Assembly (NCBI GenBank): GCA_964508365.1
Contig: CAZDTP010000003.1
Location: forward strand, 56,092-120,091
Direction of reading: 5' to 3'
Source: an uncultured archaeon
GTDB lineage: Archaea; Asgardarchaeota; Lokiarchaeia; Sigyniarchaeales; SOKP01
Length of the DNA stretch: 64,000 bases
Below the pieces are notes generated by a model. The model made no database searches. It was not told the origin of the DNA and worked only from the letters and a program-made list of their open reading frames with translations. Below, in pieces: positions 4,383 through 40,141 of this stretch; position 1 is the first letter of the stretch, and each line of letters begins with the position of its first letter. The position numbers were made by a program, and so were the translations under genes.

Positions 4383-5501
4383 TTACTTCTTTAGGAAATG
4401 TCTATAAATTGTCACATAGTTTTTTACACTTACTACTCTAGGATTACGCCTAAAATTAGAAGGAATAAGAGCACTACAGCGTGAACAGAGTTTTGAAGTC
4501 TGCATCCAATCTTTAAATTCATCAGCGTGGGAAGGATACCTGCAGTTTGGACATACAACTACTCCTCGTCCTCTATCTTCCGGAAGTTTTGGTAATTTAA
4601 AACAAAAGATACACTTGAAATCCTCTAATGTTAAATATGATCCTTTTGGTTTAAATTTGTCAAAATTTTGGATTTTTGAAGTTGATTTAGTTCTAGTTAT
4701 ATGAGTTGCATTTGATGTTTTTTTTCTAGTGGTTTGCTTTTTTGACGTAGGAGTTATTCTTGATGATTGAGTTCTAGATCTTGTTGTACGAGTAGTTGCT
4801 CTAGTAGAGGGTGTTGGATTAGTTACCCTTGTTGTCCTTACATTCTGTCTCTGTATTGTAGGTGTGGTTAAACTATTAATAGTTCTAGTACGATTTGCGA
4901 TGTAATCACGAGTTAATGTAGGTAGTGATGAGCGTGTATTAGTAAATCCAAAAAGTATTACTATTAAAATCGTAGCAATTAATAGCAGCAAGAGATTTAA
5001 GTCTAATGGAAAACTTTCAATAGAACCATAGAAAGTTATCCAATAAGTTAGAATGAAAATAAGAACTGAGATTGATAACATGTACCCTAGCGTTCTCGCT
5101 TTTACTGCCTTTGTTCCAAAGTATATTACATTGTATTTCTTAAAACAACGATATAAAGAGTAAGAACCATACAATATGTAAGGAAAAGCAAAAATTAGGC
5201 TCCATAAACTAAAATATACCCCTCCGAGAAGATTTTCACCCAATACACCTGTATAAAAACCCCATATAGAATAAAAAATTCCCACACATAACGGAAGAAT
5301 TACAAAAAATGCAGTATTTTGTGGTGAATTAAACTCACGATGACGTTTTATGTTTTCAAATATTTTTAAAGTGAATATTAACCATAACCCAATTAATAAC
5401 CAAGTAACAAAATTAGAAAAAGAATAGGAGAGTAAACCATGGATTGCACCAATTATTAGAAAAATAGTACATATTATTGTTATAGTTTTATTTCTTGCCA
5501 T
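4383..5501 (-). CDS. Multi-pass membrane protein with C-terminal RING-variant Zn finger (candidate E3 ligase)
   Basis: About six hydrophobic segments in aa 1-190, an S/T/R/K-rich low-complexity linker, then CIFC-x16-CPNC-x4-H-x6-W-x6-CSRC; last gene of the Ubl-E1-E2-JAMM run. Confidence 0.65.
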   Translation of the reverse strand: MARNKTITIICTIFLIIGAIHGLLSYSFSNFVTWLLIGLWLIFTLKIFENIKRHREFNSPQNTAFFVILPLCVGIFYSIWGFYTGVLGENLLGGVYFSLWSLIFAFPYILYGSYSLYRCFKKYNVIYFGTKAVKARTLGYMLSISVLIFILTYWITFYGSIESFPLDLNLLLLLIATILIVILFGFTNTRSSLPTLTRDYIANRTRTINSLTTPTIQRQNVRTTRVTNPTPSTRATTRTTRSRTQSSRITPTSKKQTTRKKTSNATHITRTKSTSKIQNFDKFKPKGSYLTLEDFKCIFCFKLPKLPEDRGRGVVVCPNCRYPSHADEFKDWMQTSKLCSRCSALIPSNFRRNPRVVSVKNYVTIYRHFLKK

Positions 5502-5533
5502 GGTTTAGATATCACCAAAGGTGTTTTTTATCT

Positions 5534-6340
5534 TTATTCATCATATTCTAAATATGCTGGTTTCCCTTCAATAATTGGATTCATGAATTCTAAAATTTCT
5601 GGTAACATTCTCACATCTAAATGGCCCTTAATATCAAAAGGTACCGAGTACCATTTTTTAGTTTTAAAATTTGCACGATAGATCTCAAAACCTACAGATT
5701 TTCCGTTAATTTGATAAGGATCAATTACTAAAGCTACTGATTTATCCCAAAATTGCTGATATCGCCTTTGAGTCCCTAAGTCTTCTCTAGACATGAAACA
5801 TCCATATGAGGGATGAGAATGATACCATCCACAAATAAATTGCTTACTTTTTACAATATCTTCATATGCTCGAGTAAAATTGTTATAATCTTTAATTTCA
5901 GCATAGACTGCAGTGCCGTGACCCATTGGATATGCATCTTCTAAATATAATATTCCATTGTCATAGCTTCCAGCGAGTAACCCAATCACCTCAACCCAGT
6001 TCTCTTTCCTAATTTTGGAATTCGCATATTTCAACGAATGACTTGAGATCTTTAGGATAGCTTTTACAGTTATTTTTATCTTTGCAGAAATTTTATCACT
6101 TTTATCACCTTTAGCGATAGTTATTACAGGTTCCATTGGAATTGGTTCTAATTTGGTTTTTATACTTTCTGAATGGTTTAAAGATTTCGCATCAAAAATT
6201 TCAGCGGTTATTTCTTCCTGTAATTCTTCGAGTTGTAATTCGGTGTATACTTCCTCAAGTATTTCTTTTTTGATCTTTTCCTTTATTTTTTGTTTAATTG
6301 CATCTCTAATTTTTTCACCATTCTCATCGTTAATTTTCAT
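5534..6340 (-). CDS. JAMM/MPN+ metallo-isopeptidase (Rpn11/CSN5-like) with charged N-terminal extension
   Basis: VEVIGLLAG and GWYHSHPSYGCFMSREDLGTQ...VALVIDP match the eukaryotic GWYHSHP.YGC.LS..D..TQ JAMM motif. Confidence 0.92.
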   Translation of the reverse strand: MKINDENGEKIRDAIKQKIKEKIKKEILEEVYTELQLEELQEEITAEIFDAKSLNHSESIKTKLEPIPMEPVITIAKGDKSDKISAKIKITVKAILKISSHSLKYANSKIRKENWVEVIGLLAGSYDNGILYLEDAYPMGHGTAVYAEIKDYNNFTRAYEDIVKSKQFICGWYHSHPSYGCFMSREDLGTQRRYQQFWDKSVALVIDPYQINGKSVGFEIYRANFKTKKWYSVPFDIKGHLDVRMLPEILEFMNPIIEGKPAYLEYDE

Positions 6341-6344
6341 AAAA

Positions 6345-6872
6345 TCACCATTTATCCTTCGCGTATTTCTTTACCAAATTCCTAACTTTTTTTTCAAAAT
6401 TTTTCTGATCTTTCATCATCTCAATAGCTGCCTTTTTGTTAAAAACATCAGTTGGATTAACATATTTTCCACGAGTGTTTAACATAGCAATTATTGCTTG
6501 AACAACTGTAACCGCTGTTTTTGAAGGACTCCATCCCCCTTTTTTGCCAGTTAGAGAAGGATCTACTAAAGCTAAGCAGATATTTCTTTGTCCTTTATAT
6601 TCACTTGGCTTTGGCCAAAAGTTTGGATGCCATATCGGAGTATGCAATCTAACAAAAGGAGGCTGATTTGGATATTGAACAGGAAACTTCATTTCTAATT
6701 TAAACAATCCTCCTGCATAAGCAGTGCCTTTAGGACCTTTAATCGTAACAGCTAAGTGATCGATGCTCTTTTTTTTTGGATTAAATGGCTTTAATTGGAT
6801 AATTGTACCTTCCTTTAGCAACTTTTTTAGTCCCGCAAAATCTCGGGAAACTCGACTACTTCTTATACTCAT
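6345..6872 (-). CDS. Ubiquitin-conjugating enzyme E2 (UBC fold)
   Basis: IKGPKGTAYAGGLF.L...FP..YP..PP.V...TPIWHPN...IC...WSP; HPN motif and catalytic Cys present. Confidence 0.93.
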   Translation of the reverse strand: MSIRSSRVSRDFAGLKKLLKEGTIIQLKPFNPKKKSIDHLAVTIKGPKGTAYAGGLFKLEMKFPVQYPNQPPFVRLHTPIWHPNFWPKPSEYKGQRNICLALVDPSLTGKKGGWSPSKTAVTVVQAIIAMLNTRGKYVNPTDVFNKKAAIEMMKDQKNFEKKVRNLVKKYAKDKW

Positions 6873-6938
6873 ATTCTTAACCCCGTTTTTTCTTTTTTTT
6901 CTTTTTAATATTTTAAAATTATATTTTGGATTAAAATT

Positions 6939-8174
6939 TTATTTAAATTTTAAGGTTACATAAATCTCTCCACCTTTAAACCCCGCAACTGTGAGAAATT
7001 CGTAATTCCTCAAATCGTTTTGTACAAGAGTTTGGTCATTATCTAAAACGACAATATCATTAAAATCTAATAAAGTTAAAACCGGTTCAAATTCAGATTC
7101 CAATTCATATCCATTTCTTTCTAGTGTTTTAATTAAATTTGTACAAGGTGAAGTACTCTTCATTTTAATGGAAACTCGTCTTACCTTTTTACCGCACTGA
7201 GAACATTCTGGATTTCTCTTCTTTTCAATGTGGTATAGTTTCATTGTCACAGCATTAAATATCACATAACTTGTAATAGGCTGACCTAATCCTTTATGAC
7301 CCCTTTTCCAATGAAGGATTTTAACCACCTCATGAGATTGTAATGCCGAAATAGTTGCGTTAATTGTAATTATCCCAGGATCGTGGCGATCAATAATTTT
7401 TACAATATCATCTTCGGTATATTCAGGTAAGAAATTGTGTTTTACAACAAGTTCATTTGCAACTTTTTGAATAAATCTAATATCTTCTACATTTTTAGGA
7501 TTTGGATCTGTGTCAAATTTATCTTTAAAGGCCATATCTCCTTTAAAGACACAATGAATTCTTTTTCGAGGGATGCCAACCACCGTGCAAGCTGCCATTT
7601 CATCACTTTTGAGATCTGGCAATGGATTGCATTCATAACATGCATTTCGATATGGAAATATCGTATATATGTGACCATAATAACCAGAAACCCCTCCATC
7701 TACTAAAGGTTTTCTGAATCTAATGCATTGAGCGTTTAAATTTAGCCTTGCGTTCATTGAATCAAGACCTCCAATTACAACATCTGCATTATAATAGAGT
7801 GCAGGGTTTAATCTTTCTAAGGATGAATGATACCCTTTAACAATAATATTTGGATTAATTTCGACTAATTTTCTTGCAGCTGCAATTGCTTTGGGTTCTC
7901 CTAACTTTGCGCCCACAAACAGAATTTGACGGTTCAGGTTAGAATGTTCAATTATGTCTAAATCGACAAGATCTATATGACCTACCCCTAACATGGTTAA
8001 GTTTTTAGCAATTTCACATCCTAAACCTCCTACGCCAGCTATTAATACTCTCGACTTTTTTACTAATTTCTGGGACCATCCTTCTAAACGAAATTGACGA
8101 TCGTATAAGTCTCTCTCTTCTTCTGACATTCCCTTTGCAAAAAAATCTGAATTCTTACGCAATATTATCACCAT
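6939..8174 (-). CDS. Ubiquitin-like activating enzyme E1 (Uba3/Uba2-like) with probable C-terminal ubiquitin-fold domain; real start may be MSEEER
   Basis: LYDRQ, AGVGGLG, DLDIIEHSNLNRQ, CYEC...CSQC Zn site, catalytic MAACT..PRKRIHC resembling Uba3 CT..PRLPEHC. Confidence 0.92.
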   Translation of the reverse strand: MVIILRKNSDFFAKGMSEEERDLYDRQFRLEGWSQKLVKKSRVLIAGVGGLGCEIAKNLTMLGVGHIDLVDLDIIEHSNLNRQILFVGAKLGEPKAIAAARKLVEINPNIIVKGYHSSLERLNPALYYNADVVIGGLDSMNARLNLNAQCIRFRKPLVDGGVSGYYGHIYTIFPYRNACYECNPLPDLKSDEMAACTVVGIPRKRIHCVFKGDMAFKDKFDTDPNPKNVEDIRFIQKVANELVVKHNFLPEYTEDDIVKIIDRHDPGIITINATISALQSHEVVKILHWKRGHKGLGQPITSYVIFNAVTMKLYHIEKKRNPECSQCGKKVRRVSIKMKSTSPCTNLIKTLERNGYELESEFEPVLTLLDFNDIVVLDNDQTLVQNDLRNYEFLTVAGFKGGEIYVTLKFK

Positions 8175-8185
8175 TAATATTAATC

Positions 8186-8220
8186 AAAAAAATAAAAAAA
8201 TTGAAGGGCTTTATGCCCTT
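8186..8220 (-). terminator. Hairpin plus oligo-T tract between Ubl1 and E1
   Basis: Minus strand AAGGGC-ATAAA-GCCCTT (8204-8220) followed by CAATTTTTTATTTTTTTT. Confidence 0.5.
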
Positions 8221-8247
8221 ACTATATATTATATTTTATGAAAAGAA

Positions 8248-8583
8248 TTATTTAAAAGTACCCGCTGTGCTTGCAGGGATTAAAAGTATATCGTCGCCAT
8301 CATTAACATTATAGTCTTTTAACTGGCTACTCTCATCCATTGTTCTTCCACCAGAAGAAAGATGGAACTCATCTGGATCAAGTCCGAATAGATTTCCTAA
8401 TGTTTGTTTGATATCGCTTACGTTATTTGCGTCATTTACAGTTAACTTTTCCTTCTTTTCACCAGGACCAATAGTTGACATGAAATATAAAGTCAACTTC
8501 TTACCTGTTGAGGGAACTTTGCTTGATGGGGTTTTAGATTTAACTGGTTCTAACTCCTCATCAAAATCTTCATTATAACCCAT
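8248..8583 (-). CDS. Ubiquitin-like protein Ubl1 (acidic N-terminal tail; ends IPASTAG-TFK)
   Basis: Beta-grasp/ubiquitin pattern VSDIKQTL...LSSGGRTMDESSQLKDYNVNDGDDILLI; directly upstream of E1. Confidence 0.85.
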   Translation of the reverse strand: MGYNEDFDEELEPVKSKTPSSKVPSTGKKLTLYFMSTIGPGEKKEKLTVNDANNVSDIKQTLGNLFGLDPDEFHLSSGGRTMDESSQLKDYNVNDGDDILLIPASTAGTFK

Positions 8584-8845
8584 TTTAATCGTTTCTCTTA
8601 TTTTTTTTTTAAAGTTTTTTTTTTAAACTTAATAATATCAAGTTAAAATGATATTAAAAAACCCATTGGAATGATTTTGAAGTTTTTTGAATTTTTGTTT
8701 AAAATATAAGTATCTACATCAAAAAACCTAATATCATATATTTATAAATTAAATGAATGACTATCAATATATATAAATAGGAAAATATCGTATTAGAGAG
8801 AAGATTTGATTATATAAATCAATTTATTCAACACGTTAAAATCAA

Positions 8846-9529
8846 TTGCTTATGAGCACTCCAGATAACCTTCAATCTATTGTTTGTAATCTAATAAAGG
8901 AATATCTAAAAAAGAAACCTTTCTTTTCAATAGAAGATATTGTAATGTTCATCAGTAATAGGGTAAGAACTAACCCTAATTTGAACAAACGCAGCATTGA
9001 AATCATCATTAAAAATCTCATTAAAAGAAGAATTCTAATCCCTGGAACTAAATTAATGAAAAATAATATCATCGAGCATCCAATAAGAAATGAAATCTAT
9101 AATTATATAAGAAAGAATCCTTCGAATGTTAATGATATAATGAAAGCAATTAATATTGGGAGTAATCAAGCGTTATGGCATTTATCTTGCTTAGAAAAAT
9201 TTAGATTTACAAGATCAACAAAAATCGAGAATCAAAGAATAATTTTTGAATATGAATCAAATTCAGATCTAGATGAGTTGTATTACTATTTAAAACAGGA
9301 TATTGTACAAGATATTATCAACCTACTGAAAAAAGAAAACACCTCATTTAAAATTACGGAAATTGCTGCCAATTTAAAAAAAAATTACAATACTGTAAAA
9401 AAATATCTTGAAATATTAGGAACTCTGAAAATATTAAAAATTGAAAAAAATAAAAAAAGAGTTTTATTCAGATTAGATCAAGAGAAATATGATAATATTA
9501 GGAAATCCATTATTGATGGTGAATTATAA
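8846..9529 (+). CDS. Tandem winged helix-turn-helix protein, probable transcription regulator
   Basis: Two HTH-like units (NVNDIMKAINIGSNQALWHLSCLEKF; KITEIAANLKKNYNTVKKYLEILG); divergent from Ubl1. Confidence 0.65.
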   Translation: MLMSTPDNLQSIVCNLIKEYLKKKPFFSIEDIVMFISNRVRTNPNLNKRSIEIIIKNLIKRRILIPGTKLMKNNIIEHPIRNEIYNYIRKNPSNVNDIMKAINIGSNQALWHLSCLEKFRFTRSTKIENQRIIFEYESNSDLDELYYYLKQDIVQDIINLLKKENTSFKITEIAANLKKNYNTVKKYLEILGTLKILKIEKNKKRVLFRLDQEKYDNIRKSIIDGEL

Positions 9530-9608
9530 AATTTACAAAGTTATTCCAATGGAATTTATATTTTGAATTATATATTAGAAAATTAGATAATACTTTAATC
9601 AAAAAATC

Positions 9609-10397
9609 ATGAAGAAGAAATATAGAGTTTTAAATATCATAACTCTTTATGTTGTTTTCACTTTAATTTATTTGATTTTTTTCATATTCCAAATAGAGAG
9701 TTTACCTTTATTTCTCTTTCTAACTATTGGGAGTGTTGCTGTATTATCTACCAGCACGATCTATACCGTTGTTAAATCTAAAAGCAGTCCAGCGAAGAGG
9801 ATAAAAAAAGATAAATATTATCAAAAACCAAAATCAATCAAAAGAATATCGAGTGATTTGATTGAGGATTACTTCGAAGCCATGCCATTAATAGATCAAT
9901 ACGCTGATACTGATGTATCTTTTGAAAATGTAGAATCAATCGATGATTATATCTTCACTTTTTTCAAACAAGAGGAAGTAGATAAAATCGATTTGTTAGG
10001 GTTTTCAAAAATGGATAAAATCTTTTTTATCAGAGAGATGTTGTATTTTGATGCTGGTGAGAGAAAGCAGCTAATCGAAGATATTTTGAAAAATAAAGAT
10101 ATAACTGATGAACAGATAAAATACTACCCGCCTTTAAACATAATTGGATTGAATGATAAATTACGCGTTTACATAAGGTCATTAGTCGAACCTGGTGAGA
10201 AGACCAAAATACTCATAATTGAAACCTCCGAATTAATAAGTATAATCAAAGAACAAGTTGGAATTCTATTTGATTATGGTTTAGAAGATTTTTCCCTATC
10301 CACAGGAGGTTTAATATTAGATGAAACTAAGCAGATAAAGGACTATTTTATTGACGAGGATGACGAAATTGCTTTAATTCCATCAAAAAAAAAATAG
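9609..10397 (+). CDS. Membrane-anchored protein with C-terminal ubiquitin-like domain lacking a terminal Gly
   Basis: Two N-terminal hydrophobic helices; the C-terminal ~80 aa align by eye with Ubl1/Ubl2 (EPGEK, IKEQV, LSTGG..LDE...IKDY.I..DDEI.LIP); ends PSKKK. Confidence 0.75.
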   Translation: MKKKYRVLNIITLYVVFTLIYLIFFIFQIESLPLFLFLTIGSVAVLSTSTIYTVVKSKSSPAKRIKKDKYYQKPKSIKRISSDLIEDYFEAMPLIDQYADTDVSFENVESIDDYIFTFFKQEEVDKIDLLGFSKMDKIFFIREMLYFDAGERKQLIEDILKNKDITDEQIKYYPPLNIIGLNDKLRVYIRSLVEPGEKTKILIIETSELISIIKEQVGILFDYGLEDFSLSTGGLILDETKQIKDYFIDEDDEIALIPSKKK

Positions 10398-10416
10398 AAT
10401 TATTTTTTTTATAGTT

Positions 10417-10836
10417 TTATATCCTTTCAATATAACAACCAGCAACACTCGCTGGAATTAATAAAATGTCATCTCCATCATCTACATTGTAATCACTCAG
10501 CGTAGATTCTTCATCCATGGTAACTCCTCCAGAAGACAAATAAAAATCAGATGGATCTAAAGCAAATAAATTCGCTATAGTATCTTTAATATCTCTTACC
10601 ATATTACCCGTGAAGACGGTAAGCTTTTGTTTTTTCTCCCCTGGTCCTATAGTGGATAAAAAAAAAACTGAAATCTTTTTTCCTTCAGAAGAGATTGTGG
10701 GTTCTGGAGTTTTAGATCTAATATCTTCTGTTTGGTCCTTTTTAGACTGATCATCAATATCTTTATCCAAGCTTTCATCAATTTCCTCATCGAATTCTTC
10801 ATCGAACTCCTCTTCAAATTCATCGTCAAAATCCAT
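10417..10836 (-). CDS. Ubiquitin-like protein Ubl2 (long acidic tail; ends IPASVAG-CYIERI)
   Basis: Clear paralog of Ubl1 (STIGPGEKK.KLTV, LSSGG.TMDE, DYNV.DGDDILLIPAS.AG). Confidence 0.85.
   Translation of the reverse strand: MDFDDEFEEEFDEEFDEEIDESLDKDIDDQSKKDQTEDIRSKTPEPTISSEGKKISVFFLSTIGPGEKKQKLTVFTGNMVRDIKDTIANLFALDPSDFYLSSGGVTMDEESTLSDYNVDDGDDILLIPASVAGCYIERI
10785..10833 (-). repeat. Imperfect ~12-nt coding repeat giving the (D/E)EEF acidic tail of Ubl2
   Basis: Protein reads DFDDEFEEEFDEEFDEEIDE. Confidence 0.5.
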
Positions 10837-12139: not shown

Positions 12140-13177
12140 ATGAAAATTCCAAAAGGAATTGAAGGGGATTACCTTGAAACAAAAGAAAACAACCTTTTTT
12201 TCGATATAAAAGGTTATCACCATCCCCGAGACCGTAGAATTTGTTTTTTAAGATTTTATCCAGATCAAAATGGGGAAAGAATAAAAGAAGGCAAAAAATT
12301 TAATAAAATCTATTCTTTAGATGAAAGATATTTGAAATTAAGAGAGGAATACCCACAGTATCTTTTTTTTTCAAATGAACTTGATTTAGAGCTTCAGGGC
12401 GTAGAAATTAAAGATATAAAGAAAATTTATACGCCCCGAGAATACTATGATGCATTAAAAATGAGGAATAATTTGTCAGAAATCGAAATCCATTCCAAAA
12501 ATTTGTGTGAGTTATTTATTACAGGCGGTTCCATACCAGAAGATGCAATCGGTATTTCTGGTTCCCCCATGATCGGATTAAGTAAAGATGATTCTGATAT
12601 AGATGTAATAATATATGGAACTCGTGCTAGTTTAGAGTTTCAAGATAAATTAAAAACAATACTGCTTACTTCAAACAATTGTAGGGCGTATAACTTAAGC
12701 GAATATAAAACTCATTATAATTGGAGGGTAGGAGGTTCTGGCATTAGTTTCGAGAATTTTTTGAGAAGTGAAAAAAGAAAGTTACATCAAGGAAAATTCT
12801 ATGGAATTGATTTCTTTATACGATATATTAAAAGCCCTAATGATTGGAATGGAACTTTCTACGATTACAAATTCAAGAACTTAGGAAGGATTGAAATAAA
12901 AGCAAAAATTGTAGATTCAACCGATTCCATTTTTACTCCCTGCTCTTATAAAATTAATGGTATAGAAATCGTAGATAAAAAATTTATTAGAAATGATATA
13001 AATTTAAAAGATATTACTGAAATCAACTCATTTCGCGGTAGATTTTGTGAACACGCTAAAGATGGAGAAACTGTGTTAGTTAAAGGAAAACTAGAAGAAG
13101 TAGTTTTCAAAAATAACAAAAAATATCTAAGAATTCTACTTACGGATCAAAAACAAGATATTTTTTGCGTAATATAG
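12140..13177 (+). CDS. Predicted archaeal Pol-beta-superfamily nucleotidyltransferase (COG1665-like)
   Basis: GISGSPMIGL...SDIDVIIYG (GS...DxD); possible C-terminal OB-like region. Confidence 0.7.
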   Translation: MKIPKGIEGDYLETKENNLFFDIKGYHHPRDRRICFLRFYPDQNGERIKEGKKFNKIYSLDERYLKLREEYPQYLFFSNELDLELQGVEIKDIKKIYTPREYYDALKMRNNLSEIEIHSKNLCELFITGGSIPEDAIGISGSPMIGLSKDDSDIDVIIYGTRASLEFQDKLKTILLTSNNCRAYNLSEYKTHYNWRVGGSGISFENFLRSEKRKLHQGKFYGIDFFIRYIKSPNDWNGTFYDYKFKNLGRIEIKAKIVDSTDSIFTPCSYKINGIEIVDKKFIRNDINLKDITEINSFRGRFCEHAKDGETVLVKGKLEEVVFKNNKKYLRILLTDQKQDIFCVI

Positions 13178-13280
13178 CTCTAATTATCCGACTTAAAATA
13201 ACAAAACACTTTTTTTCCTAAAACAAAAAAAATAATAGGTATCCACCATTAAATTATTTCAGAAATATCTGATTTAAAAT

Positions 13281-14354
13281 ATGATTGAGCGATATAAAAA
13301 ATCAGTCGAAATAGACCCGAAAGACGCAGACGCGTGGATTAACTTAGGGGATGCCTATTACGACGAAACAAATTTTGATGAGGCAATAAAAGCATATCAG
13401 AAAGCAATTGATATTAATCCTTTTTTTTCCGAAGTATGGAATAATTTAGGTCTAGCACTCAGTATGATACATAAATTTAAAGATGCAATAGAATGTTATC
13501 AAGAAGCGCTTAAAATCGAACCAGACGACGCAATTTCTTACTATAACATGGGATTTGCATATGAGGATTTAGAAGATTATGATAATGCGTTAAAATTTTA
13601 CAAGATTGCACTAGAATATGAACCAAGCTACACAGATGTGTGGAATAATATTGCTTTAATTTATAGAGAAAATGAACAATATGATGAAGCAATAGAATGC
13701 TACAAAAAAGCGATAAGAATCAACCCAGATGAGCAAATGTTATATAATAATATAGCCATCATCTATTACGATACCCAAAACTTCGATGAAGCCATAAAGT
13801 ATTATAAAAAAGCTATTGATCTAGATCCCAACAATGCAGAGTTATGGTTTGATTTAGGTGACATTGCATATGAACAAAACGACTATGAATTGGCAATATC
13901 CTGTTATAAAAAAGCAACTGAGCTTAATCCTCAATTCATTGAAGCATGGAATAATTTGGGGTTATCCTACACATTTACGAAAGAATTTAAAAAATCTATC
14001 AAGTGCTATGAAGAAGCACTAAGTTTACAATCTGAGGACCCAGTACTTTATGAAAATTTAGCGTTTAGCTATAGTGCTTTAAATGATTTTGATAATGCTA
14101 TTTTATATTATCAAAACACTCTTAGAATCGATCCTGAGAACATCAACGTACTTAAGAAATTAGGCCGAATTTATTGCGATGTAAGAAAAAATTATGAAGA
14201 AGCAATAAAACATTTTAATAAAATTGTCGCTTTGGATCCTTCTGAATTAGATTTTTGGGAATCAGCGGTAAGTTGTCATGAAAAACTAGGAAATTTTGAA
14301 AAAGCTAAAGAATGGAATGAAAAAGGGTCTAAACTAAAAGCAAATGATTATTAA
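13281..14354 (+). CDS. Tetratricopeptide repeat protein (~10 TPRs)
   Basis: 34-aa periodic W.NLG..Y.....Y.EAI..Y.KA..I.P units. Confidence 0.92.
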   Translation: MIERYKKSVEIDPKDADAWINLGDAYYDETNFDEAIKAYQKAIDINPFFSEVWNNLGLALSMIHKFKDAIECYQEALKIEPDDAISYYNMGFAYEDLEDYDNALKFYKIALEYEPSYTDVWNNIALIYRENEQYDEAIECYKKAIRINPDEQMLYNNIAIIYYDTQNFDEAIKYYKKAIDLDPNNAELWFDLGDIAYEQNDYELAISCYKKATELNPQFIEAWNNLGLSYTFTKEFKKSIKCYEEALSLQSEDPVLYENLAFSYSALNDFDNAILYYQNTLRIDPENINVLKKLGRIYCDVRKNYEEAIKHFNKIVALDPSELDFWESAVSCHEKLGNFEKAKEWNEKGSKLKANDY

Positions 14355-14378
14355 TCGATTCTAGTTTTAAATTAACTA

Positions 14379-15689
14379 ATGGATTCATTTAATGCTGACT
14401 TACACATCCACTCACCTCATTCAATTGCAGTATCTAAAAATCTTAATTTAGATACTATGGTAGAAACCTGTAAGAAAAAAGGGTTGGATATCCTTGGAAC
14501 CGGAGATGTGTTGCAACCGGATTGGTTAAAGTATTTAGAAAAGAATTTGAAAAAAGACCATGTCGGAGCTTTCTCTTATAAGGATATTTACTTTATTTTA
14601 CAAACTGAGATTGAAGACGAAAATTCGATTCACGAAGTGGTTTTTTTCCCCGATTTTTCAACCGTAAGAGAAGTCCAAAAAAAGATTAAACCATATTCAA
14701 AAAATATTTTGGGTGAATGGGGGGGTCGCCCAAGGGTAAATTTACCTCCTGCGGAATTAGTTGACATTATCACAGATTTTGGAGCAATAATAGGTCCTGC
14801 TCATGCTTTTACTCCATTTAAAGCAATTTTTCGCCAAAGTAAATATGCGACTCTCGAAGAGTGCTATCAAGACGCTACTAAAAAAGTGAAATTTTTAGAA
14901 TTAGGACTCTCTGCTAATACAGATTTAGCCGATAAATTAGAATCTCTTAAAAATATATCTTTTTTAAGCAATAGCGATGCGCATTCTGAAAGTCCCCGCT
15001 CTTTAGGGAGAGAATTCAACAAAATTAAAATGGAAAACCCTTCGTTTGATGAGCTAGCCTTAGCCTTAGAAAGAAAAAGTCAACGCAAAATTGAACTAAA
15101 TGTAGGACTTCACCCGAAGCTAGGAAAATATTATAATATGTTCTGCAACAAATGTAGAAGAAGAGTAATATTTGTTAAATCAGAAAAAACTAAAGATACA
15201 CTATTAAATGAATATACTATTTCAGAAGACTTCATAAAAATTTTATCAGAAAACCCCTTAAATGCGAGAAAAGAATACATAAACAATGTTTCCAAGGAGA
15301 AAATTACTTGTCCTGCTTGTAAAGAAAAAATTAACAAGAACATTAAAATTAAATTAGGAGTCAGTGAGAGAATAGATGTTATTTCTACATCAATCGAACC
15401 AATACATCCAAATCATAGGCCTCCATACATCAATGCGGTTCCTTTAATAGATATTATTCGCGCGGTAAAAAAAATTAAGAGCGCTACGAGTGTTACAGTT
15501 TTAAAATCATATGAGAAAATGTTAAATGAACTAGGCGCCGAATTTATTATTTTATTTGATACAGAAATTGAAGAAATCAAGAAATTTGACAAGAATATTG
15601 CCACAGTTATCGAAGCAATAAGAAAAAATAAAGTTAAATATACACCTGGTGGCGGTGGGACTTATGGGCAAATTCAACTCGAAATGTAA
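14379..15689 (+). CDS. PHP-family protein, endonuclease Q-like (TIGR00375-type)
   Basis: ADLHIHS, GTGD, GPAHAFTP, ELGLSA, SNSDAHS, GKY...C..C...C..C, C-terminal PGGGGTYG. Confidence 0.8.
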   Translation: MDSFNADLHIHSPHSIAVSKNLNLDTMVETCKKKGLDILGTGDVLQPDWLKYLEKNLKKDHVGAFSYKDIYFILQTEIEDENSIHEVVFFPDFSTVREVQKKIKPYSKNILGEWGGRPRVNLPPAELVDIITDFGAIIGPAHAFTPFKAIFRQSKYATLEECYQDATKKVKFLELGLSANTDLADKLESLKNISFLSNSDAHSESPRSLGREFNKIKMENPSFDELALALERKSQRKIELNVGLHPKLGKYYNMFCNKCRRRVIFVKSEKTKDTLLNEYTISEDFIKILSENPLNARKEYINNVSKEKITCPACKEKINKNIKIKLGVSERIDVISTSIEPIHPNHRPPYINAVPLIDIIRAVKKIKSATSVTVLKSYEKMLNELGAEFIILFDTEIEEIKKFDKNIATVIEAIRKNKVKYTPGGGGTYGQIQLEM

Positions 15690-15758
15690 CTATCTAAAGA
15701 AGAATTTAAGTAGCTGTTAATAAGGAAATCTAAGTATTGAAAAAAGTTCAAAATTTGG

Positions 15759-15998
15759 CTATATTTCAAACTCTAAATCAAGATTTAAAAGTTCTCCACA
15801 TTTAGAGCAAGTCATAAAATCAAAAATTTTAAATGCTACAACCATAAGCTCTAAATCTTTTCTAGGAAATCGATTTTTAAACTTTTTTTTATAATCTCCG
15901 GAAGGACAGCTAATAATCGCTCGTACATTAATAATGTCCTCCGCTTCCGAACTATCGAAAGCTTGTTCAGTTGTATTCTTATTCATATCAATTTCCAT
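15759..15998 (-). CDS. Small putative Zn-binding protein
   Basis: CPSG...CSKCG; divergent from ftsZ. Confidence 0.55.
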   Translation of the reverse strand: MEIDMNKNTTEQAFDSSEAEDIINVRAIISCPSGDYKKKFKNRFPRKDLELMVVAFKIFDFMTCSKCGELLNLDLEFEI

Positions 15999-16206
15999 TT
16001 TAATTAACCCCGAGCATATAAAATATGAAAATTCGGTCTTTTAAATTTATCTACTTCGAAATTTATCCTTTTTATCACGCGAACAAGTGGAAATTTGATG
16101 TATTTTCATTGTAATACTCATATAACATCTATATTAATAATATTAATTTTGATATGTATTATTAGCGTATTATATAGCTAATTACTCCATATTATGGTAA
16201 TGATTA

Positions 16207-17349
16207 ATGAACAACGATGAATTTGATCTAAGCGAAATTGTAAAATCTAGAGAATCTGTTAGAACTAGGTTTAATGAGATAGCGCGTCAGAATGTTAAAT
16301 CAAATAACGTGTCAAATCTAGATAACGACACTTATCTAGCGGATCTGCTAAAAGTTATAAAAATTAAGTCTTTAGTTATTGGAGTCGGTGGAGCTGGGAA
16401 TAACACCGTATCGAGAATGCACGATATTGACTCTGATTACATCGACTCGCTCACTATTAATACGGATGCTCACGATTTATATTACTCAAATTCTAGCCAG
16501 AAACTTTTAATCGGAAAAGAGATTTGCAACGGATTAGGGTCTGGTAATGATCCCAGCATCGGTAGTGCGGCTGCTGAAGAAGATGTAGATCGCCTTTCTC
16601 AAGTGTTAAACGCTGATGTAGTTTTCCTTACTTTTGGCTTGGGTGGTGGTACTGGTACTGGTGCAGCTCCTATTATTGCTAGGGAAGCCAAAAAAAATAA
16701 TGCCACAGTTGTATCGTTTTGTTCAGTACCTTTTAAATCTGAAGGAGTGGAACGAAATTTAAGAGCAAGAAAAGGTCTAGAGGAACTTATGAAATATTCT
16801 GATACATTAATCCCTATACCAAATGATAATCTTCTCCGATTTAACCAAAAATTACCTATTCTAGCAGGTTTTAAGATTATGGATGAGGTTTTAATCAGGT
16901 GTATTAAAGAAATAATTAATCTAATAAATAACTGTGGTTTGATTAATATTGATTACGCAGATGTTAGAAAAGTTTTAGAAAAAAAGGGAAATTACCCTTC
17001 TGGGCTAATTGGTATTACAGAATCGTTAGGTGAAGAAAGAGATTTAATAAGAAAGTCTAAACTAGCATTACATAATCCTCTTTTAGAACCGGACATAAAA
17101 AAAGTTGATAAATGCATAGTTTCTGTTTCTGGTGATCATCAATTATCGTTATCTAATATTGATAGGATTATTTCAACAATTTCAAGTGAAATCCCCGAGG
17201 ATGCATCTCTTAAATTCGGAACTTCATTAAATCCAACCCTAGGATCGAAAATTAGGATTATGGCGTTAGGGCGAGGCCCAATCTCGCCATATGTTCAAGC
17301 GGCAATAGATGGGACTGAATTTCCACACACTCACATAAGCCAGCTGTAA
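16207..17349 (+). CDS. ftsZ: FtsZ family GTPase
   Basis: GVGGAGNN, INTD, GLGGGTGTGAAP, PF..EG, PNDNL, T7 loop GLINIDYADV. Confidence 0.9.
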   Translation: MNNDEFDLSEIVKSRESVRTRFNEIARQNVKSNNVSNLDNDTYLADLLKVIKIKSLVIGVGGAGNNTVSRMHDIDSDYIDSLTINTDAHDLYYSNSSQKLLIGKEICNGLGSGNDPSIGSAAAEEDVDRLSQVLNADVVFLTFGLGGGTGTGAAPIIAREAKKNNATVVSFCSVPFKSEGVERNLRARKGLEELMKYSDTLIPIPNDNLLRFNQKLPILAGFKIMDEVLIRCIKEIINLINNCGLINIDYADVRKVLEKKGNYPSGLIGITESLGEERDLIRKSKLALHNPLLEPDIKKVDKCIVSVSGDHQLSLSNIDRIISTISSEIPEDASLKFGTSLNPTLGSKIRIMALGRGPISPYVQAAIDGTEFPHTHISQL

Positions 17350-23724: not shown

Positions 23725-24498
23725 TTAATCGAAAATCTTTTTATAACACTCGCAACAAGGAATTCCAAGACTAATTTTATTGGAGTAATCAACTCTTATT
23801 TCCTCAATATTATTAACTAATCTGATTAGGCTCTCTTTAAATTTCAATACTTCGGGATCCAAAATATTTTTATATATATTTTTTAATCCAACATTGTTAT
23901 GAATTCTCTTTTTGCAAATGGGGCATCGATCAAAGAAATTTTTTAACCTTATCAATTGCTCGTCTTCTTTATTAATAGTTAAACGAAAGTGAGATAAAGT
24001 GTGTCCTGGATGTAGTGTTATAATTAATTTCTTAAATATTTCCTCTAAATTTTCTTCTAGACTTAATAGCGAGGTGTGTTCGATATATACGAGGTCTTCC
24101 TCAGCTATCAAGTTATTAATCGCTTCTTCTGATACTTCCCTATTTGCTAAATTGGCTTTGATCCCAATTAAAATAATTGGAATATCATTCACATTCTCCT
24201 TAAAAAGAGTTATCCACCTATTTAAGTCGGAGAAAGTTTCTTTATTAGATATGTTAAAGCATAACAATCCTGTACAGGCACCTCGACAGAATACAGGAAA
24301 AAGAAACCTAAATCTTTTGCTATCTTTCAAATCCCAAATAATAAACTTATAGTTATCTTCCTCATTAACTTGACATTCCACAGATTTAAACGAAACACCA
24401 ATCGGGCTTCCGTTATTTCCATTATTATCAATAACGGTATTTTTACCCGAGTTAAATGATCCTCCTAAAACCAATTTTAACTTATAAGATTTGGGCAT
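23725..24498 (-). CDS. Degenerate Rab-like small GTPase fused to a C-terminal Cys-rich domain
   Basis: YKLKLVLGG...GK, IGVSF, FIIWD...RFR......RGA, PIILIG.K; C-terminal CPIC...CCEC. Confidence 0.7.
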   Translation of the reverse strand: MPKSYKLKLVLGGSFNSGKNTVIDNNGNNGSPIGVSFKSVECQVNEEDNYKFIIWDLKDSKRFRFLFPVFCRGACTGLLCFNISNKETFSDLNRWITLFKENVNDIPIILIGIKANLANREVSEEAINNLIAEEDLVYIEHTSLLSLEENLEEIFKKLIITLHPGHTLSHFRLTINKEDEQLIRLKNFFDRCPICKKRIHNNVGLKNIYKNILDPEVLKFKESLIRLVNNIEEIRVDYSNKISLGIPCCECYKKIFD

Positions 24499-39097: not shown

Positions 39098-40141
39098 ATG
39101 GCTAATGAAGTCATCCTCTGTTTAAGTTATTTCGACACAATTTTCGGACCTAACACCTTATATTGCAGTTCCCCTTTGATTCCTGAGGAACATCCAGATT
39201 TAGGAAGAATTTTGGAATTCACAGAGGAAGAGGGTAATTTTATCTTTACGTTTAGGAAATATCAGACGATTAATCATATTTTTTACGTCAAGTCAGAGTA
39301 TGCTCGTGGTGGTAAAGAACTCTTAATGATAACCTATATGATCAAAGCTGCCTATTTTAAGGAAGAAATAACAGATGTTTACGAATTTTTATTATCTAAA
39401 ACATCTGATCTTGAATCTTACGCTTTAGAACTAAAAGAACTTCAGGAAATTACTGAATTACTTCACACTCATAAAAATCGTACTAATCAAAAAAAAATTC
39501 TTGATGTCGCATCTAAAGAATTTAAAGAAAAATTCCTTACCCTATTCCAAAAATATTTAGAAAAAATGATGCCTCGAATAGATATTAATGCACCCTTACT
39601 AGATAAGGGAAATTTGAAGAAGATTTATGTTTTTGGACCAACAAACGCAGGAAAATCCACACTAGTACAAAATTTAGAAGTAATTCAATTTCTCCAATAT
39701 AAGAACAATGAAATGAAACGAGATTTGGCAAGTAAGATCTATGATTTTATAATTGATAGTATCGAAGTATTAACTTTTGAGTGTATTGATGAAAATACAG
39801 ATACGGAAAAAATTGAGATTTATAAAGACTGTATCGATAATGCTCAAGGCTTTATTTTAATCTTTAACGCATCTAATATAGAGTTTTTGAAAGAAGCTAT
39901 CGAGATGTTCCAATTAGTTATAGCCCGGTGCTTAGATCAAGGAGATTCTATGCCTATTCTGATTATTGGCAATAAATTTCAAAACAAAGAGGAAATCAGA
40001 TCGGATATGATTTTTGAGAATTTCGATATGGATGAATTAAATGAATGTGGATTACTCCCCCACTATTTCTCGATTAATATACTTAGTGAAGATGATAAAA
40101 TTATCAATGCTTTGCGCTGGTTCTTAACACAAATTATATAA
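39098..40141 (+). CDS. Longin/uDENN-like domain fused to a small-GTPase-like domain
   Basis: N-terminal LSYFDTIFGPNTLY; P-loop FGPTNAGKST; GFILIFNA; ILIIGNK. Confidence 0.68.
   Translation: MANEVILCLSYFDTIFGPNTLYCSSPLIPEEHPDLGRILEFTEEEGNFIFTFRKYQTINHIFYVKSEYARGGKELLMITYMIKAAYFKEEITDVYEFLLSKTSDLESYALELKELQEITELLHTHKNRTNQKKILDVASKEFKEKFLTLFQKYLEKMMPRIDINAPLLDKGNLKKIYVFGPTNAGKSTLVQNLEVIQFLQYKNNEMKRDLASKIYDFIIDSIEVLTFECIDENTDTEKIEIYKDCIDNAQGFILIFNASNIEFLKEAIEMFQLVIARCLDQGDSMPILIIGNKFQNKEEIRSDMIFENFDMDELNECGLLPHYFSINILSEDDKIINALRWFLTQII

Follow-up and report, generated by a model that had tools for sequence, protein, structure and literature searches.

The window analysed here is a 64-kb stretch of DNA, positions 56092-120091 of contig C3 in a genome of 4.07 Mb in 149 contigs, and its closest public relatives are metagenome-assembled genomes (MAGs) labelled Promethearchaeota or Promethearchaeia, i.e. 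Loki-type Asgard archaea. It possesses a ubiquitin-type conjugation locus whose core consists of five open reading frames (ORFs) on the minus strand, arranged head to tail from position 8583 down to 4383: a ubiquitin-like modifier (Ubl1), an activating enzyme (E1), a conjugating enzyme (E2), a JAMM metalloprotease and a transmembrane (TM) protein with a putative C-terminal RING domain, henceforth TM-RING. Pfam families support four of the five genes; TM-RING is the exception, with no match above threshold. An earlier note on this DNA had described a complete eukaryote-type Ubl-E1-E2-JAMM locus, and the ORFs, family matches and catalytic motifs for it are all present. Present as well are the second free modifier (Ubl2) and the membrane-tethered Ubl (TM-Ubl) listed in that note, both of them part of a conserved neighbourhood. 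The intergenic gaps measure 73, 66, 4 and 32 nt; the last three agree exactly with the values given before, but the first had been put at 64 nt.

The five-gene arrangement is far beyond chance, because all five genes occur together in 16/16 loci spanning the phylum and stand in the order Ubl-E1-E2-JAMM-TM-RING in 15 of them, the exceptional locus and its family reading E2-JAMM-TM-RING followed by Ubl-E1. Among 80 Promethearchaeota loci, the five genes and their order are kept in every locus that is not cut by a contig end. Most of these loci possess the full neighbourhood, i.e. coiled-coil protein, Ubl2, TM-Ubl, a winged helix-turn-helix (wHTH) protein and Ubl1-E1-E2-JAMM-TM-RING (Table 1). 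The earlier note had looked to gene order in related genomes as a check on its proposal, and that order is indeed conserved, both phylum-wide and in every uncut locus of the closer set. A TM-RING profile matches in 218 of the 399 phylum genomes, with 117 of 134 in the same family, 29/31 and 19/22 in two distant families, and near absence from the others. Since the operon is syntenic, near-universal in its family and spread over the phylum, it is, judged by this distribution, a vertically inherited core system and not a defence island. Some lineages may have lost the system, or their version may have diverged strongly: the TM-RING profile scores only weakly (1.5e-8) in G135, an apparently closed genome of the same order with a single contig of 4.4 Mb, and a second, probably closed genome of that order, G138 (6.04 Mb, single contig, locus L039), possesses the full operon.

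Table 1. Features of the ubiquitin-type locus and its immediate neighbourhood, in window coordinates.
Feature	Position	Strand	Support
Ubl1, 111-aa ubiquitin-fold modifier precursor	8248..8583	-	PF00240 6.5e-8
Hairpin with two T7 runs, putatively terminator-/attenuator-like	8186..8220	-	sequence; kept in relatives
E1, 411 aa, eukaryote-type activating enzyme	6939..8174	-	ThiF 2.7e-56
E2, 175 aa, UBC fold	6345..6872	-	UQ_con 7.8e-27
JAMM/MPN+ metalloprotease, 268 aa, Rpn11/CSN5 type	5534..6340	-	PF01398 8.7e-14
TM-RING, 372-aa six-TM membrane protein	4383..5501	-	hydropathy, AF2 model; no Pfam/NCBIfam/PADLOC name
RING domain of TM-RING, residues 285-372	4386..4649	-	hhalign, PDB profile search, Foldseek, VIA
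wHTH protein, 227 aa, two winged-helix domains	8846..9529	+	HTH_5 5e-6; HrcA_DNA-bdg 3.5e-5
TM-Ubl, 262 aa, membrane hairpin and Ubl domain	9609..10397	+	PF00240 0.018; phmmer paralogy
Ubl2, 139-aa second free modifier precursor	10417..10836	-	PF00240 1.4e-5
Coiled-coil protein, 367 aa	11016..12119	+	coiled-coil-type matches only

The E1 carries a GxGGxG motif at 47-52, CxxC pairs at 179 and 324 (zinc site) and a catalytic Cys196. Its best relatives in PDB are the SUMO E1 UBA2 (4e-36), then UBA1, then UBA3, the last aligned over residues 36-335. Cys196 (...MAACTVVGIP...) aligns with the catalytic Cys173 of human UBA2 (...FPGCTIRNTP...), and the CYEC zinc motif is aligned as well. Weak profile matches to UBX beta-grasp domains (0.0011) suggest that the last ~80 aa are probably a ubiquitin-fold domain, as reported for the E1 of Lokiarchaeum and other Asgard archaea (PMC5654768, supplement). 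An hhalign comparison of these C-terminal 80 residues with the Ubl family found no relation (probability 0.6%). The E2 possesses H82-P83-N84, Cys99 and W114-S-P-S, with H82, P83, N84 and C99 invariant in 26 orthologues, and its top PDB matches are UBE2R2 (best, 3.9e-15), UBE2T and UBE2N. The metalloprotease shows the complete JAMM motif (E117...H174xH176x7S184xxD187) behind a charged helical N-extension of ~85 aa; the Rpn11-like protein of Caldiarchaeum subterraneum (6fjv) is its best PDB match (4.2e-16), with yeast Rpn11 and CSN5 behind.

Both free modifiers have an acidic N-terminal tail and a short C-terminal extension. In Ubl1, the acidic tail with S16-K17-T18-P19 precedes a beta-grasp core and the C-terminus ...LLIPASTAG108, followed by three residues (TFK); in Ubl2, the tail is longer, holds the motif IRSKTP (39-44), and the C-terminus ...LLIPASVAG133 is followed by six residues (CYIERI). 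A search of PDB with the profile of this family returns ubiquitin as first match, and in the alignment PASTAG takes the place of LRLRGG, the six residues that follow the last strand. Invariant positions in 23 aligned tags are S16, K17, T18, P19, L100-P103, S105, A107 and G108 (Ubl1 numbering). The earlier note's statement that the modifier lacks a Gly-Gly (GG) end is literally true. The GG end of Caldiarchaeum- and Asgard-type modifiers is not found in the Ubl1/Ubl2 family; both free Ubls have instead a conserved ...PAS[TV]AG with a short tail, so that the terminal Gly is retained as Ala-Gly (AG). In the 80 Promethearchaeota loci, 47 of 66 Ubl1 orthologues stop exactly at PASTAG and 41 of 51 Ubl2 orthologues stop exactly at PAS[TIV]AG, the remainder running 1-7 residues beyond AG. 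The operon Ubl of the 16 phylum-wide loci ends in ...[ASVHT]STAG, usually without any tail. As the terminal Gly is kept, the AG tag appears from its sequence to be competent for conjugation in principle, but its tail must be read by its own E1. A tag of this kind would leave a trypsin remnant of ~19 residues (DYNVNDGDDILLIPASTAG).

Further Ubl genes occur elsewhere. A third free AG Ubl lies at C12:20754-21086 (-) (locus L133); it is 110 aa long, holds a VKSKTP motif, ends in ...PSSSAG-IY and stands alone between two large polytopic membrane proteins of 472 and 485 aa. A small Ubl at C1:58421-58612 (-) ends in ...VMATQAGG, has the genome's best ubiquitin-family score (3.3e-9) and lies ~8 kb from a MoeB-like ThiF protein of 246 aa; GG tags thus coexist with the AG tags of the operon in one genome. 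Large operon-adjacent proteins of other Asgard lineages end in an AG-type Ubl domain: L037:15072-16814 (580 aa, ...LLIPSSRAG), L048:1910-3718 (602 aa, ...LLIPASTAG) and L041:12270-13160 (296 aa, ...IPSSTAGFF). Such proteins might be conjugated whole, or might release a tag.

Hydropathy places the TM segments of TM-RING at 6-24, 30-48, 64-82, 91-109, 137-155 and 168-186. The positive-inside count puts the N-terminus and every basic loop on the same side of the membrane as the C-terminal part, and a topology with both termini inside and a cytoplasmic RING is thus predicted. The cytoplasmic loops contain conserved residues, R55/N58-S59-P60/N62 and K122-Y123/Y127/K131. A disordered Thr/Arg/Ser-rich linker (~215-280) connects the membrane part with the C-terminal pattern CxxC-x16-CxxC-x4-H-x2-E-x10-CxxC, which includes E-F-x2-W and has CSRC as its last pair. 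The putative zinc ligands are C297, C300, C317, C320, H325, E328, C339 and C342, with W332 in the central helix and further helices on the flanks; P285, C297, C300, C317, C320, H325, W332, C339 and C342 are invariant in 79 diverse members. The weaker matches of the TM-RING profile are small soluble Asgard proteins which read CxxC-x15/16-CxxC-x4-H-x2-H-F-x2-W...CPxC, and five of the ten tested pass the zf-RING_2 cut-off. An hhalign comparison of the TM-RING C-terminus with such zf-RING_2-positive Asgard proteins gives a probability of 98.7% (E 1.6e-16, 56 columns). By this profile match, the C-terminal domain is a RING finger with Glu at ligand position 6. A profile search of PDB sequences is headed by RING E3s, with RNF24 as best match (0.0023), followed by RNF165, Arkadia, listerin and RNF4; RNF24, RNF165, Arkadia and RNF4 span 0.002-0.04.

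An AlphaFold 2 (AF2) model built from 79 diverse sequences has a mean predicted local distance difference test score (pLDDT) of 85.8; the score exceeds 90 in both the TM and the RING part and falls below 50 in the linker. The C-terminal domain of this model takes a RING/U-box fold. It replaced a model from 17 close homologues, which was unusable (mean pLDDT 50.7). A search of ESM Atlas by structure returned the protein's own family, then RING proteins and E3s (ubiquitin-type ligases); the search by features gave no usable match. The TM-RING family comprises 327 matches in 90% clusters, all hypothetical proteins with no Pfam domain on record, and 99 cluster representatives match at E<1e-30 in a profile search of 1.84 billion proteins. 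For the membrane domain, the profile search of 1.84 billion representatives returned only its own family, fragments, RING-only proteins and a few weak membrane or linker matches. Foldseek against PDB found nothing for the membrane part (residues 1-190/215), and VIA with residues 1-190 listed only generic helical bundles (Z up to 8.6), with no Hrd1 chain among the matches. PADLOC and NCBIfam named no family above cut-off for any protein of the locus. A small soluble RING finger protein (srfp) that could act as E3 was not found in the locus, where the C-terminal domain of TM-RING is the only RING. The earlier view of a polytopic membrane RING protein as E3 candidate is hence borne out to the extent that TM-RING, with six TM segments and a RING identity, is the sole ligase candidate.

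A prediction of the complex between the E2 and the RING domain scored 0.61, against 0.00 for the best of three controls. It thereby passes a mark that 58 of 80 solved complexes attain, as do 2 of 110 mismatched pairs. The runs share at least 94% of contacts, with a partner pLDDT of at least 89. The predicted interface consists of helix 1, loop 68-69 and the W-S-P-S loop on the E2 side, and of I298-K302, E328, D331-W332 and the last zinc loop on the RING side, i.e. the textbook RING-E2 arrangement. In this model the RING domain of TM-RING is predicted to dock on the operon E2.

The same genome possesses two further E1/E2 sets. A second Ubl-type operon at C31:13515-17000 (L131:2516-6001) encodes a JAB protein of 167 aa, an E1 of 296 aa without C-terminal domain and an E2-like protein of 188 aa, with a convergent multi-pass membrane protein of 352 aa that ends in a C4HC3 finger and a CN-hydrolase protein upstream. 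The finger is complete (CxxC-x11-CxxC-x4-H-x2-C-x10-CxxC) and has weak RING/PHD matches. BLASTP of TM-RING against this second membrane RING protein found a weak RING match only (E 0.006) and none between the membrane parts, so that a membrane RING stands beside an E1/E2 set twice in the genome, with unrelated membrane parts. At C6:43523-46419 (L132), the genome encodes a third E1 (525 aa), whose ThiF domain contains a large insertion, and, ~0.8 kb away on the opposite strand, a third UBC E2 (169 aa, UQ_con 2.3e-25), with no Ubl, JAB or RING gene beside them.

The neighbours of the operon are conserved to different depths. In TM-Ubl, a membrane hairpin of two helices forms the N-terminal part, and the C-terminal Ubl domain is cytoplasmic. 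The protein is a clear paralogue of the free Ubls (phmmer 1e-9 to 1e-17 against their orthologues), even though PF00240 scores only 0.018. Its C-terminus reads ...ALIPSKKK, and 55/55 orthologues have a basic end of the ...IPSRK type with no AG or Gly. Because the terminal Gly is lacking, TM-Ubl is, to judge from these ends, a non-conjugatable Ubl domain at the cytoplasmic face and not a third modifier. It is confined to family-level relatives and has no KTP motif. The wHTH gene is divergent from Ubl1 and occupies the same position in most of the 80 loci; its product, with ArsR/SmtB and SdpR subfamily matches below cut-off, is the probable regulator of the locus. Ubl2 also keeps its position in the neighbourhood of the 80 loci. 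The coiled-coil protein reaches further: its orthologue is divergent from Ubl in 10 of the 16 phylum-wide loci and in most of the 80, and in distant lineages its gene stands directly divergent from the Ubl gene.

A short lysine motif, psi-x-S-K-T-P, is common to the free tags and to this coiled-coil neighbour. S-K-T-P is invariant in the 23 aligned tags although the remaining acidic tail is barely alignable, and many tags hold two copies. The coiled-coil protein has the motif at both ends, PKYQIREKTP (7-16) and PKYKIKSKTP (355-364), and its orthologues carry KTP after a hydrophobic residue at or near both termini, with up to three copies at one end. Per 1000 residues, KTP occurs 13.2 times in Ubl1, 9.1 times in Ubl2 and 7.4 times in the coiled-coil orthologues. 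All remaining ORFs of these loci give 0.23 and this genome gives 0.17, and KTP is absent from TM-Ubl and TM-RING. This amounts to a 40- to 70-fold enrichment, in the free Ubls and the coiled-coil protein only. A stricter pattern occurs 10 times in the genome where 4.7 would be expected, and the three tags together with the coiled-coil protein account for five of these occurrences. The motif lysine could be an acceptor site, with SUMO2/3-like chains on the tag tail and the coiled-coil protein as substrate, or the motif could be a docking site. The coiled-coil protein is accordingly a candidate substrate or scaffold. A motif common to tags and neighbour favours dedicated targets over a general role in quality control.

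The gap between the Ubl1 stop and the E1 start contains a hairpin, AAGGGC-N5-GCCCTT with loop ATAAA, followed by two T7 runs. The same hairpin occurs with compensatory changes in family-level relatives, and a T-run of at least five is found in 73 of 80 Ubl-to-E1 gaps. The hairpin and the recurrent T-runs suggest that the tag gene may be transcribed more strongly than the enzyme genes. An Rfam scan of the window found no RNA family. A sigma-70 promoter scan gave the same counts as shuffled sequence and is not meaningful for an archaeon; only the hairpin with its T-runs was kept.

The ubiquitin, E1, E2, srfp and Rpn11 operon of Caldiarchaeum subterraneum has been reconstituted in vitro, and such operons also occur in Asgard archaea (PMC5654768, PMC6043591). 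The operon described here resembles it in its clustered genes for a precursor tag of ubiquitin fold, a catalytic-Cys E1 with a C-terminal Ubl-type domain, a UBC E2, a RING and an Rpn11-type JAMM. It differs in the tag, which ends in AG instead of GG and has a long acidic N-tail with invariant SKTP, in the RING, which is part of a six-helix membrane protein instead of a small soluble one and has Glu as ligand 6, and in the JAMM gene, which is inside the operon. It differs furthermore in the conserved coiled-coil partner and, in this family, in the addition of TM-Ubl, a second tag and the wHTH protein. As of 2017, only small RING finger proteins of the srfp type were known in archaea (PMC5654768, supplement). 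A Helarchaeial E1/E2/RING-E3 cascade linked to ESCRT modifies UEV-Vps23 and works in vitro (bioRxiv 10.1101/2023.07.25.550441); in Lokiarchaeota, the ubiquitin gene region lies apart from the ESCRT region (PMC9192718). These Asgard ubiquitin-ESCRT systems share with the operon an Asgard E1, E2 and RING E3 plus a pro-ubiquitin that has a short C-terminal tail. They possess a GG ubiquitin, a soluble RING E3 with an N-loop and adjacent ESCRT genes, whereas here the tag is of AG type, the RING is membrane-embedded, no ESCRT gene lies in the window and the GG-type Ubl is encoded elsewhere in the genome. The accessible literature describes no membrane RING in an Asgard ubiquitin operon, no Ala-Gly tag and no SKTP motif; the subscription founding papers (Spang 2015, Zaremba-Niedzwiedzka 2017, Liu 2021) lie outside this coverage, and a prior mention there is possible. 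The operon is thus a genuine and conserved version of the ubiquitin-type cascade of archaea that apparently has not been studied, set apart by its membrane-embedded variant RING, its AG tag and the lysine motif that tags and partner have in common.

We read the locus as a complete, vertically inherited Asgard Ubl conjugation cascade acting at the cytoplasmic face of the cell membrane, with a probability of about 0.72. The two free Ubls would be made as short-tailed precursors, which the JAMM protease would trim to ...PAS[TV]-Ala-Gly. The E1 would adenylate the terminal Gly and load the Ubl on its Cys196, from which it would be handed to Cys99 of the E2, probably aided by the C-terminal ubiquitin-fold domain of the E1. 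TM-RING would hold the charged E2 via its variant RING (C4-H-E-C2, W332), and would promote transfer to lysines of proteins at or near the membrane. The JAMM protease would also take the tag off again. Deconjugation is probably its conserved role, since the majority of orthologous tags end without a tail and every operon nevertheless keeps a JAMM gene; for the two copies in the window, trimming is needed. The best target candidates would be the N-tails of the tags themselves and the coiled-coil protein, both marked by psi-x-S-K-T-P; the motif may serve for chains on the tag's own tail, as in SUMO2/3, or for docking on a shared partner. TM-Ubl and the wHTH protein appear to be family-level additions, probably a non-covalent membrane adaptor and a regulator.

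Several points weigh against this reading. The mechanism is deduced from the families to which the proteins belong. Ligand 6 of the RING is Glu328, not Cys or His (at least 80% of 79 rows; Ala in L038), though the other seven ligands are invariant, and no Pfam RING cut-off is reached, the best RING-type match having E 0.3 and ~11 bits where the cut-offs are 27-29 bits. Given both features, zinc site 1 may be weak or differently built. Structural comparison of the RING domain stays modest: the top Foldseek rows are nearly all RING/U-box (probability 0.9-0.99) at E-values of only 0.1-1, and VIA with residues 288-372 (~85 residues) lists 3lrq_A (Z 7.7, rmsd 4.0, 73 aligned) and 2ckl_B (Z 7.3, rmsd 3.4, 70 aligned), Z below 8 being a range that possibly shows a mere common arrangement. 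The passing score of the E2-RING model may reflect likeness to, or memory of, the textbook pair, because RING-E2 complexes are already solved. The two further E1/E2 sets and the GG-type Ubl of this genome make cross-talk possible, and it is by synteny that the AG tags are paired with this E1. The tools used linked the SKTP motif to no enzyme.

The earlier note had proposed a membrane-centred, ERAD-like system of modification or quality control (ERAD, endoplasmic-reticulum-associated degradation). Its first half stands with the six-TM RING protein; its second half is not supported by the ORFs scanned in the window or by the searches with the membrane domain. In eukaryotes, Hrd1/synoviolin and gp78 consist of a multi-pass membrane part and a cytoplasmic C-terminal RING, and Herp/Usa1 of a membrane hairpin and a Ubl domain. 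TM-RING, as a polytopic protein whose C-terminal RING lies in the cytoplasm and is of the H-x2-[ligand]-[FIL]-x2-W type, would parallel the former, and TM-Ubl, as a separate membrane-hairpin protein with a non-conjugatable Ubl domain, would parallel the latter in design only. On this analogy, the membrane RING would mark misfolded proteins for extraction and the proteasome, with TM-Ubl as a Herp/Usa1-like scaffold; the Rpn11-type JAMM and the Hrd1/synoviolin RINGs among the weak sequence and fold matches of the RING domain would suit such a role. We consider it improbable nonetheless. In the searches made, neither sequence nor fold connects the TM domain with Hrd1 or with any other solved protein, and the membrane in question is that of an archaeal cell. 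Counterparts of Cdc48, Derlin and Hrd3 are not found nearby: a scan of the window for partner genes (all ORFs of at least 180 aa beyond 15.7 kb and the main earlier ORFs, except the cut ORF 2-673) turned up neither AAA/Cdc48 or proteasome genes nor any rhomboid/Derlin or lectin-like gene, and L004, the sole relative locus with precomputed gene families, shows none either. This negative covers the 64-kb window and L004; the rest of the genome was not searched for Cdc48, Derlin/rhomboid, Hrd3-like and proteasome genes. The neighbours found in the window are GTP cyclohydrolase I, cofactor and redox enzymes, FtsZ, AlaRS, small GTPases and transporters. TM-Ubl is a family-level feature as against a phylum-wide core operon, and the conserved coiled-coil partner with the tag's motif fits dedicated targets better. 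ERAD-like thus remains an analogy, and nothing here shows an ERAD-like way of working.

SUMO offers another comparison, being attached at a psi-K-x-E consensus by Ubc9 and, as SUMO2/3, forming chains on a flexible N-tail. The tags resemble it in a flexible N-tail with a strict lysine motif that recurs in a partner protein, and UBA2 is the closest of the solved E1s; the motif differs (psi-x-S-K-T-P, its lysine a candidate acceptor only), and the E2 is not specifically Ubc9-like. If the likeness went further, there would be no catalytic E3 and the E2 would modify the psi-x-S-K-T-P lysine directly, leaving TM-RING as anchor, substrate or receptor. The invariant motif in tag tail and neighbour protein would agree with this, as would Glu at ligand 6, the unreached Pfam thresholds and the long Thr/Arg/Ser/Lys-rich linker of TM-RING, which could itself bear acceptor lysines. 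However, the residues by which canonical RINGs hold an E2 (the hydrophobic one that follows C1, W332 in the helix, and those of the last zinc loop) are invariant and make up the interface predicted in the complex model, and each of the 16 diverse loci keeps the TM-RING gene next to those for E2 and JAMM, so that we regard this explanation as unlikely. Least credible of all is a sulfur-carrier or cofactor pathway of the ThiS/MoaD type, or a mobile antiviral defence system such as the bacterial Bil or CBASS Cap2/Cap3 operons, with which the operon has a content of Ubl, E1, E2 and JAB genes in common. The E1 adenylation domain does match ThiF/MoeB and Cap2-type models partially (1e-15 to 1e-40), all far below their cut-offs, but it is only the Rossmann part of the E1 that matches the Cap2-type models; the E1 has no rhodanese domain, PADLOC finds no match for Ubl, E2 and TM-RING, and a catalytic-Cys E1 region, an HPN...C UBC E2, a RING and an Rpn11-type JAMM are all present. 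A locus near-universal in its family, with phylum-wide vertical conservation and a RING E3, is moreover unlike a defence island. Both pathway and island were rejected, the matches of PADLOC and NCBIfam being confined to the sub-cut-off adenylation domain.

A membrane-acting Asgard cascade bears on the history of ubiquitylation. Archaeal ubiquitin systems have served as an argument for an Asgard-like-host origin of eukaryotic ubiquitylation; to our knowledge, the archaeal systems studied so far have GG tags and small soluble RING proteins. Membrane-bound E3s run ERAD and receptor down-regulation in eukaryotes. A conserved Asgard operon with a membrane ligase candidate suggests that membrane-bound tagging of the ubiquitin type probably predates eukaryotes, and TM-RING, as a concrete candidate among prokaryotes, may stand at the origin of membrane-bound E3s or, at the least, testify that they existed early. 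The operon is among the most widely kept ubiquitin-type gene sets of Loki-type and other Asgard archaea. A more far-reaching version, which we hold to be rather unlikely, is a pre-eukaryotic branch with an AG tag, a membrane RING, a psi-x-S-K-T-P lysine consensus and chains on the N-tail, in which the ends of the coiled-coil protein are decorated at the inner membrane face; if true, this branch would be ancestor or sister of the eukaryotic membrane RING ligases and the first consensus-directed Ubl system outside eukaryotes. With its AG end and a tryptic remnant of ~19 residues, the tag would be invisible to standard di-Gly remnant proteomics, which may explain why it has not been sighted in cultured Asgard archaea. 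The invariant motif in tag tail and partner is a testable handle on substrates. The relative with locus L039 is probably the closed genome of a cultured or enriched strain, and testing in vivo may hence be possible.

Downstream of the coiled-coil gene, the window region 12140-17349 (+) encodes an unnamed protein of 345 aa, a tetratricopeptide repeat (TPR) protein with nine repeats (13281-14354), a protein of TIGR00375/MJ0043_C type (14379-15689) and an FtsZ/tubulin homologue (16207-17349). The same downstream run, including FtsZ, follows the locus in the L004 relative, which has 65% identity in TM-RING. Two small-GTPase-like proteins, of a kind typical of Asgard genomes, are encoded at 23725-24498 (-) (Ras family, 1.6e-17) and at 39098-40141 (+), the latter a protein of 347 aa with weak Arf, Ras and G-alpha matches in its C-terminal half.

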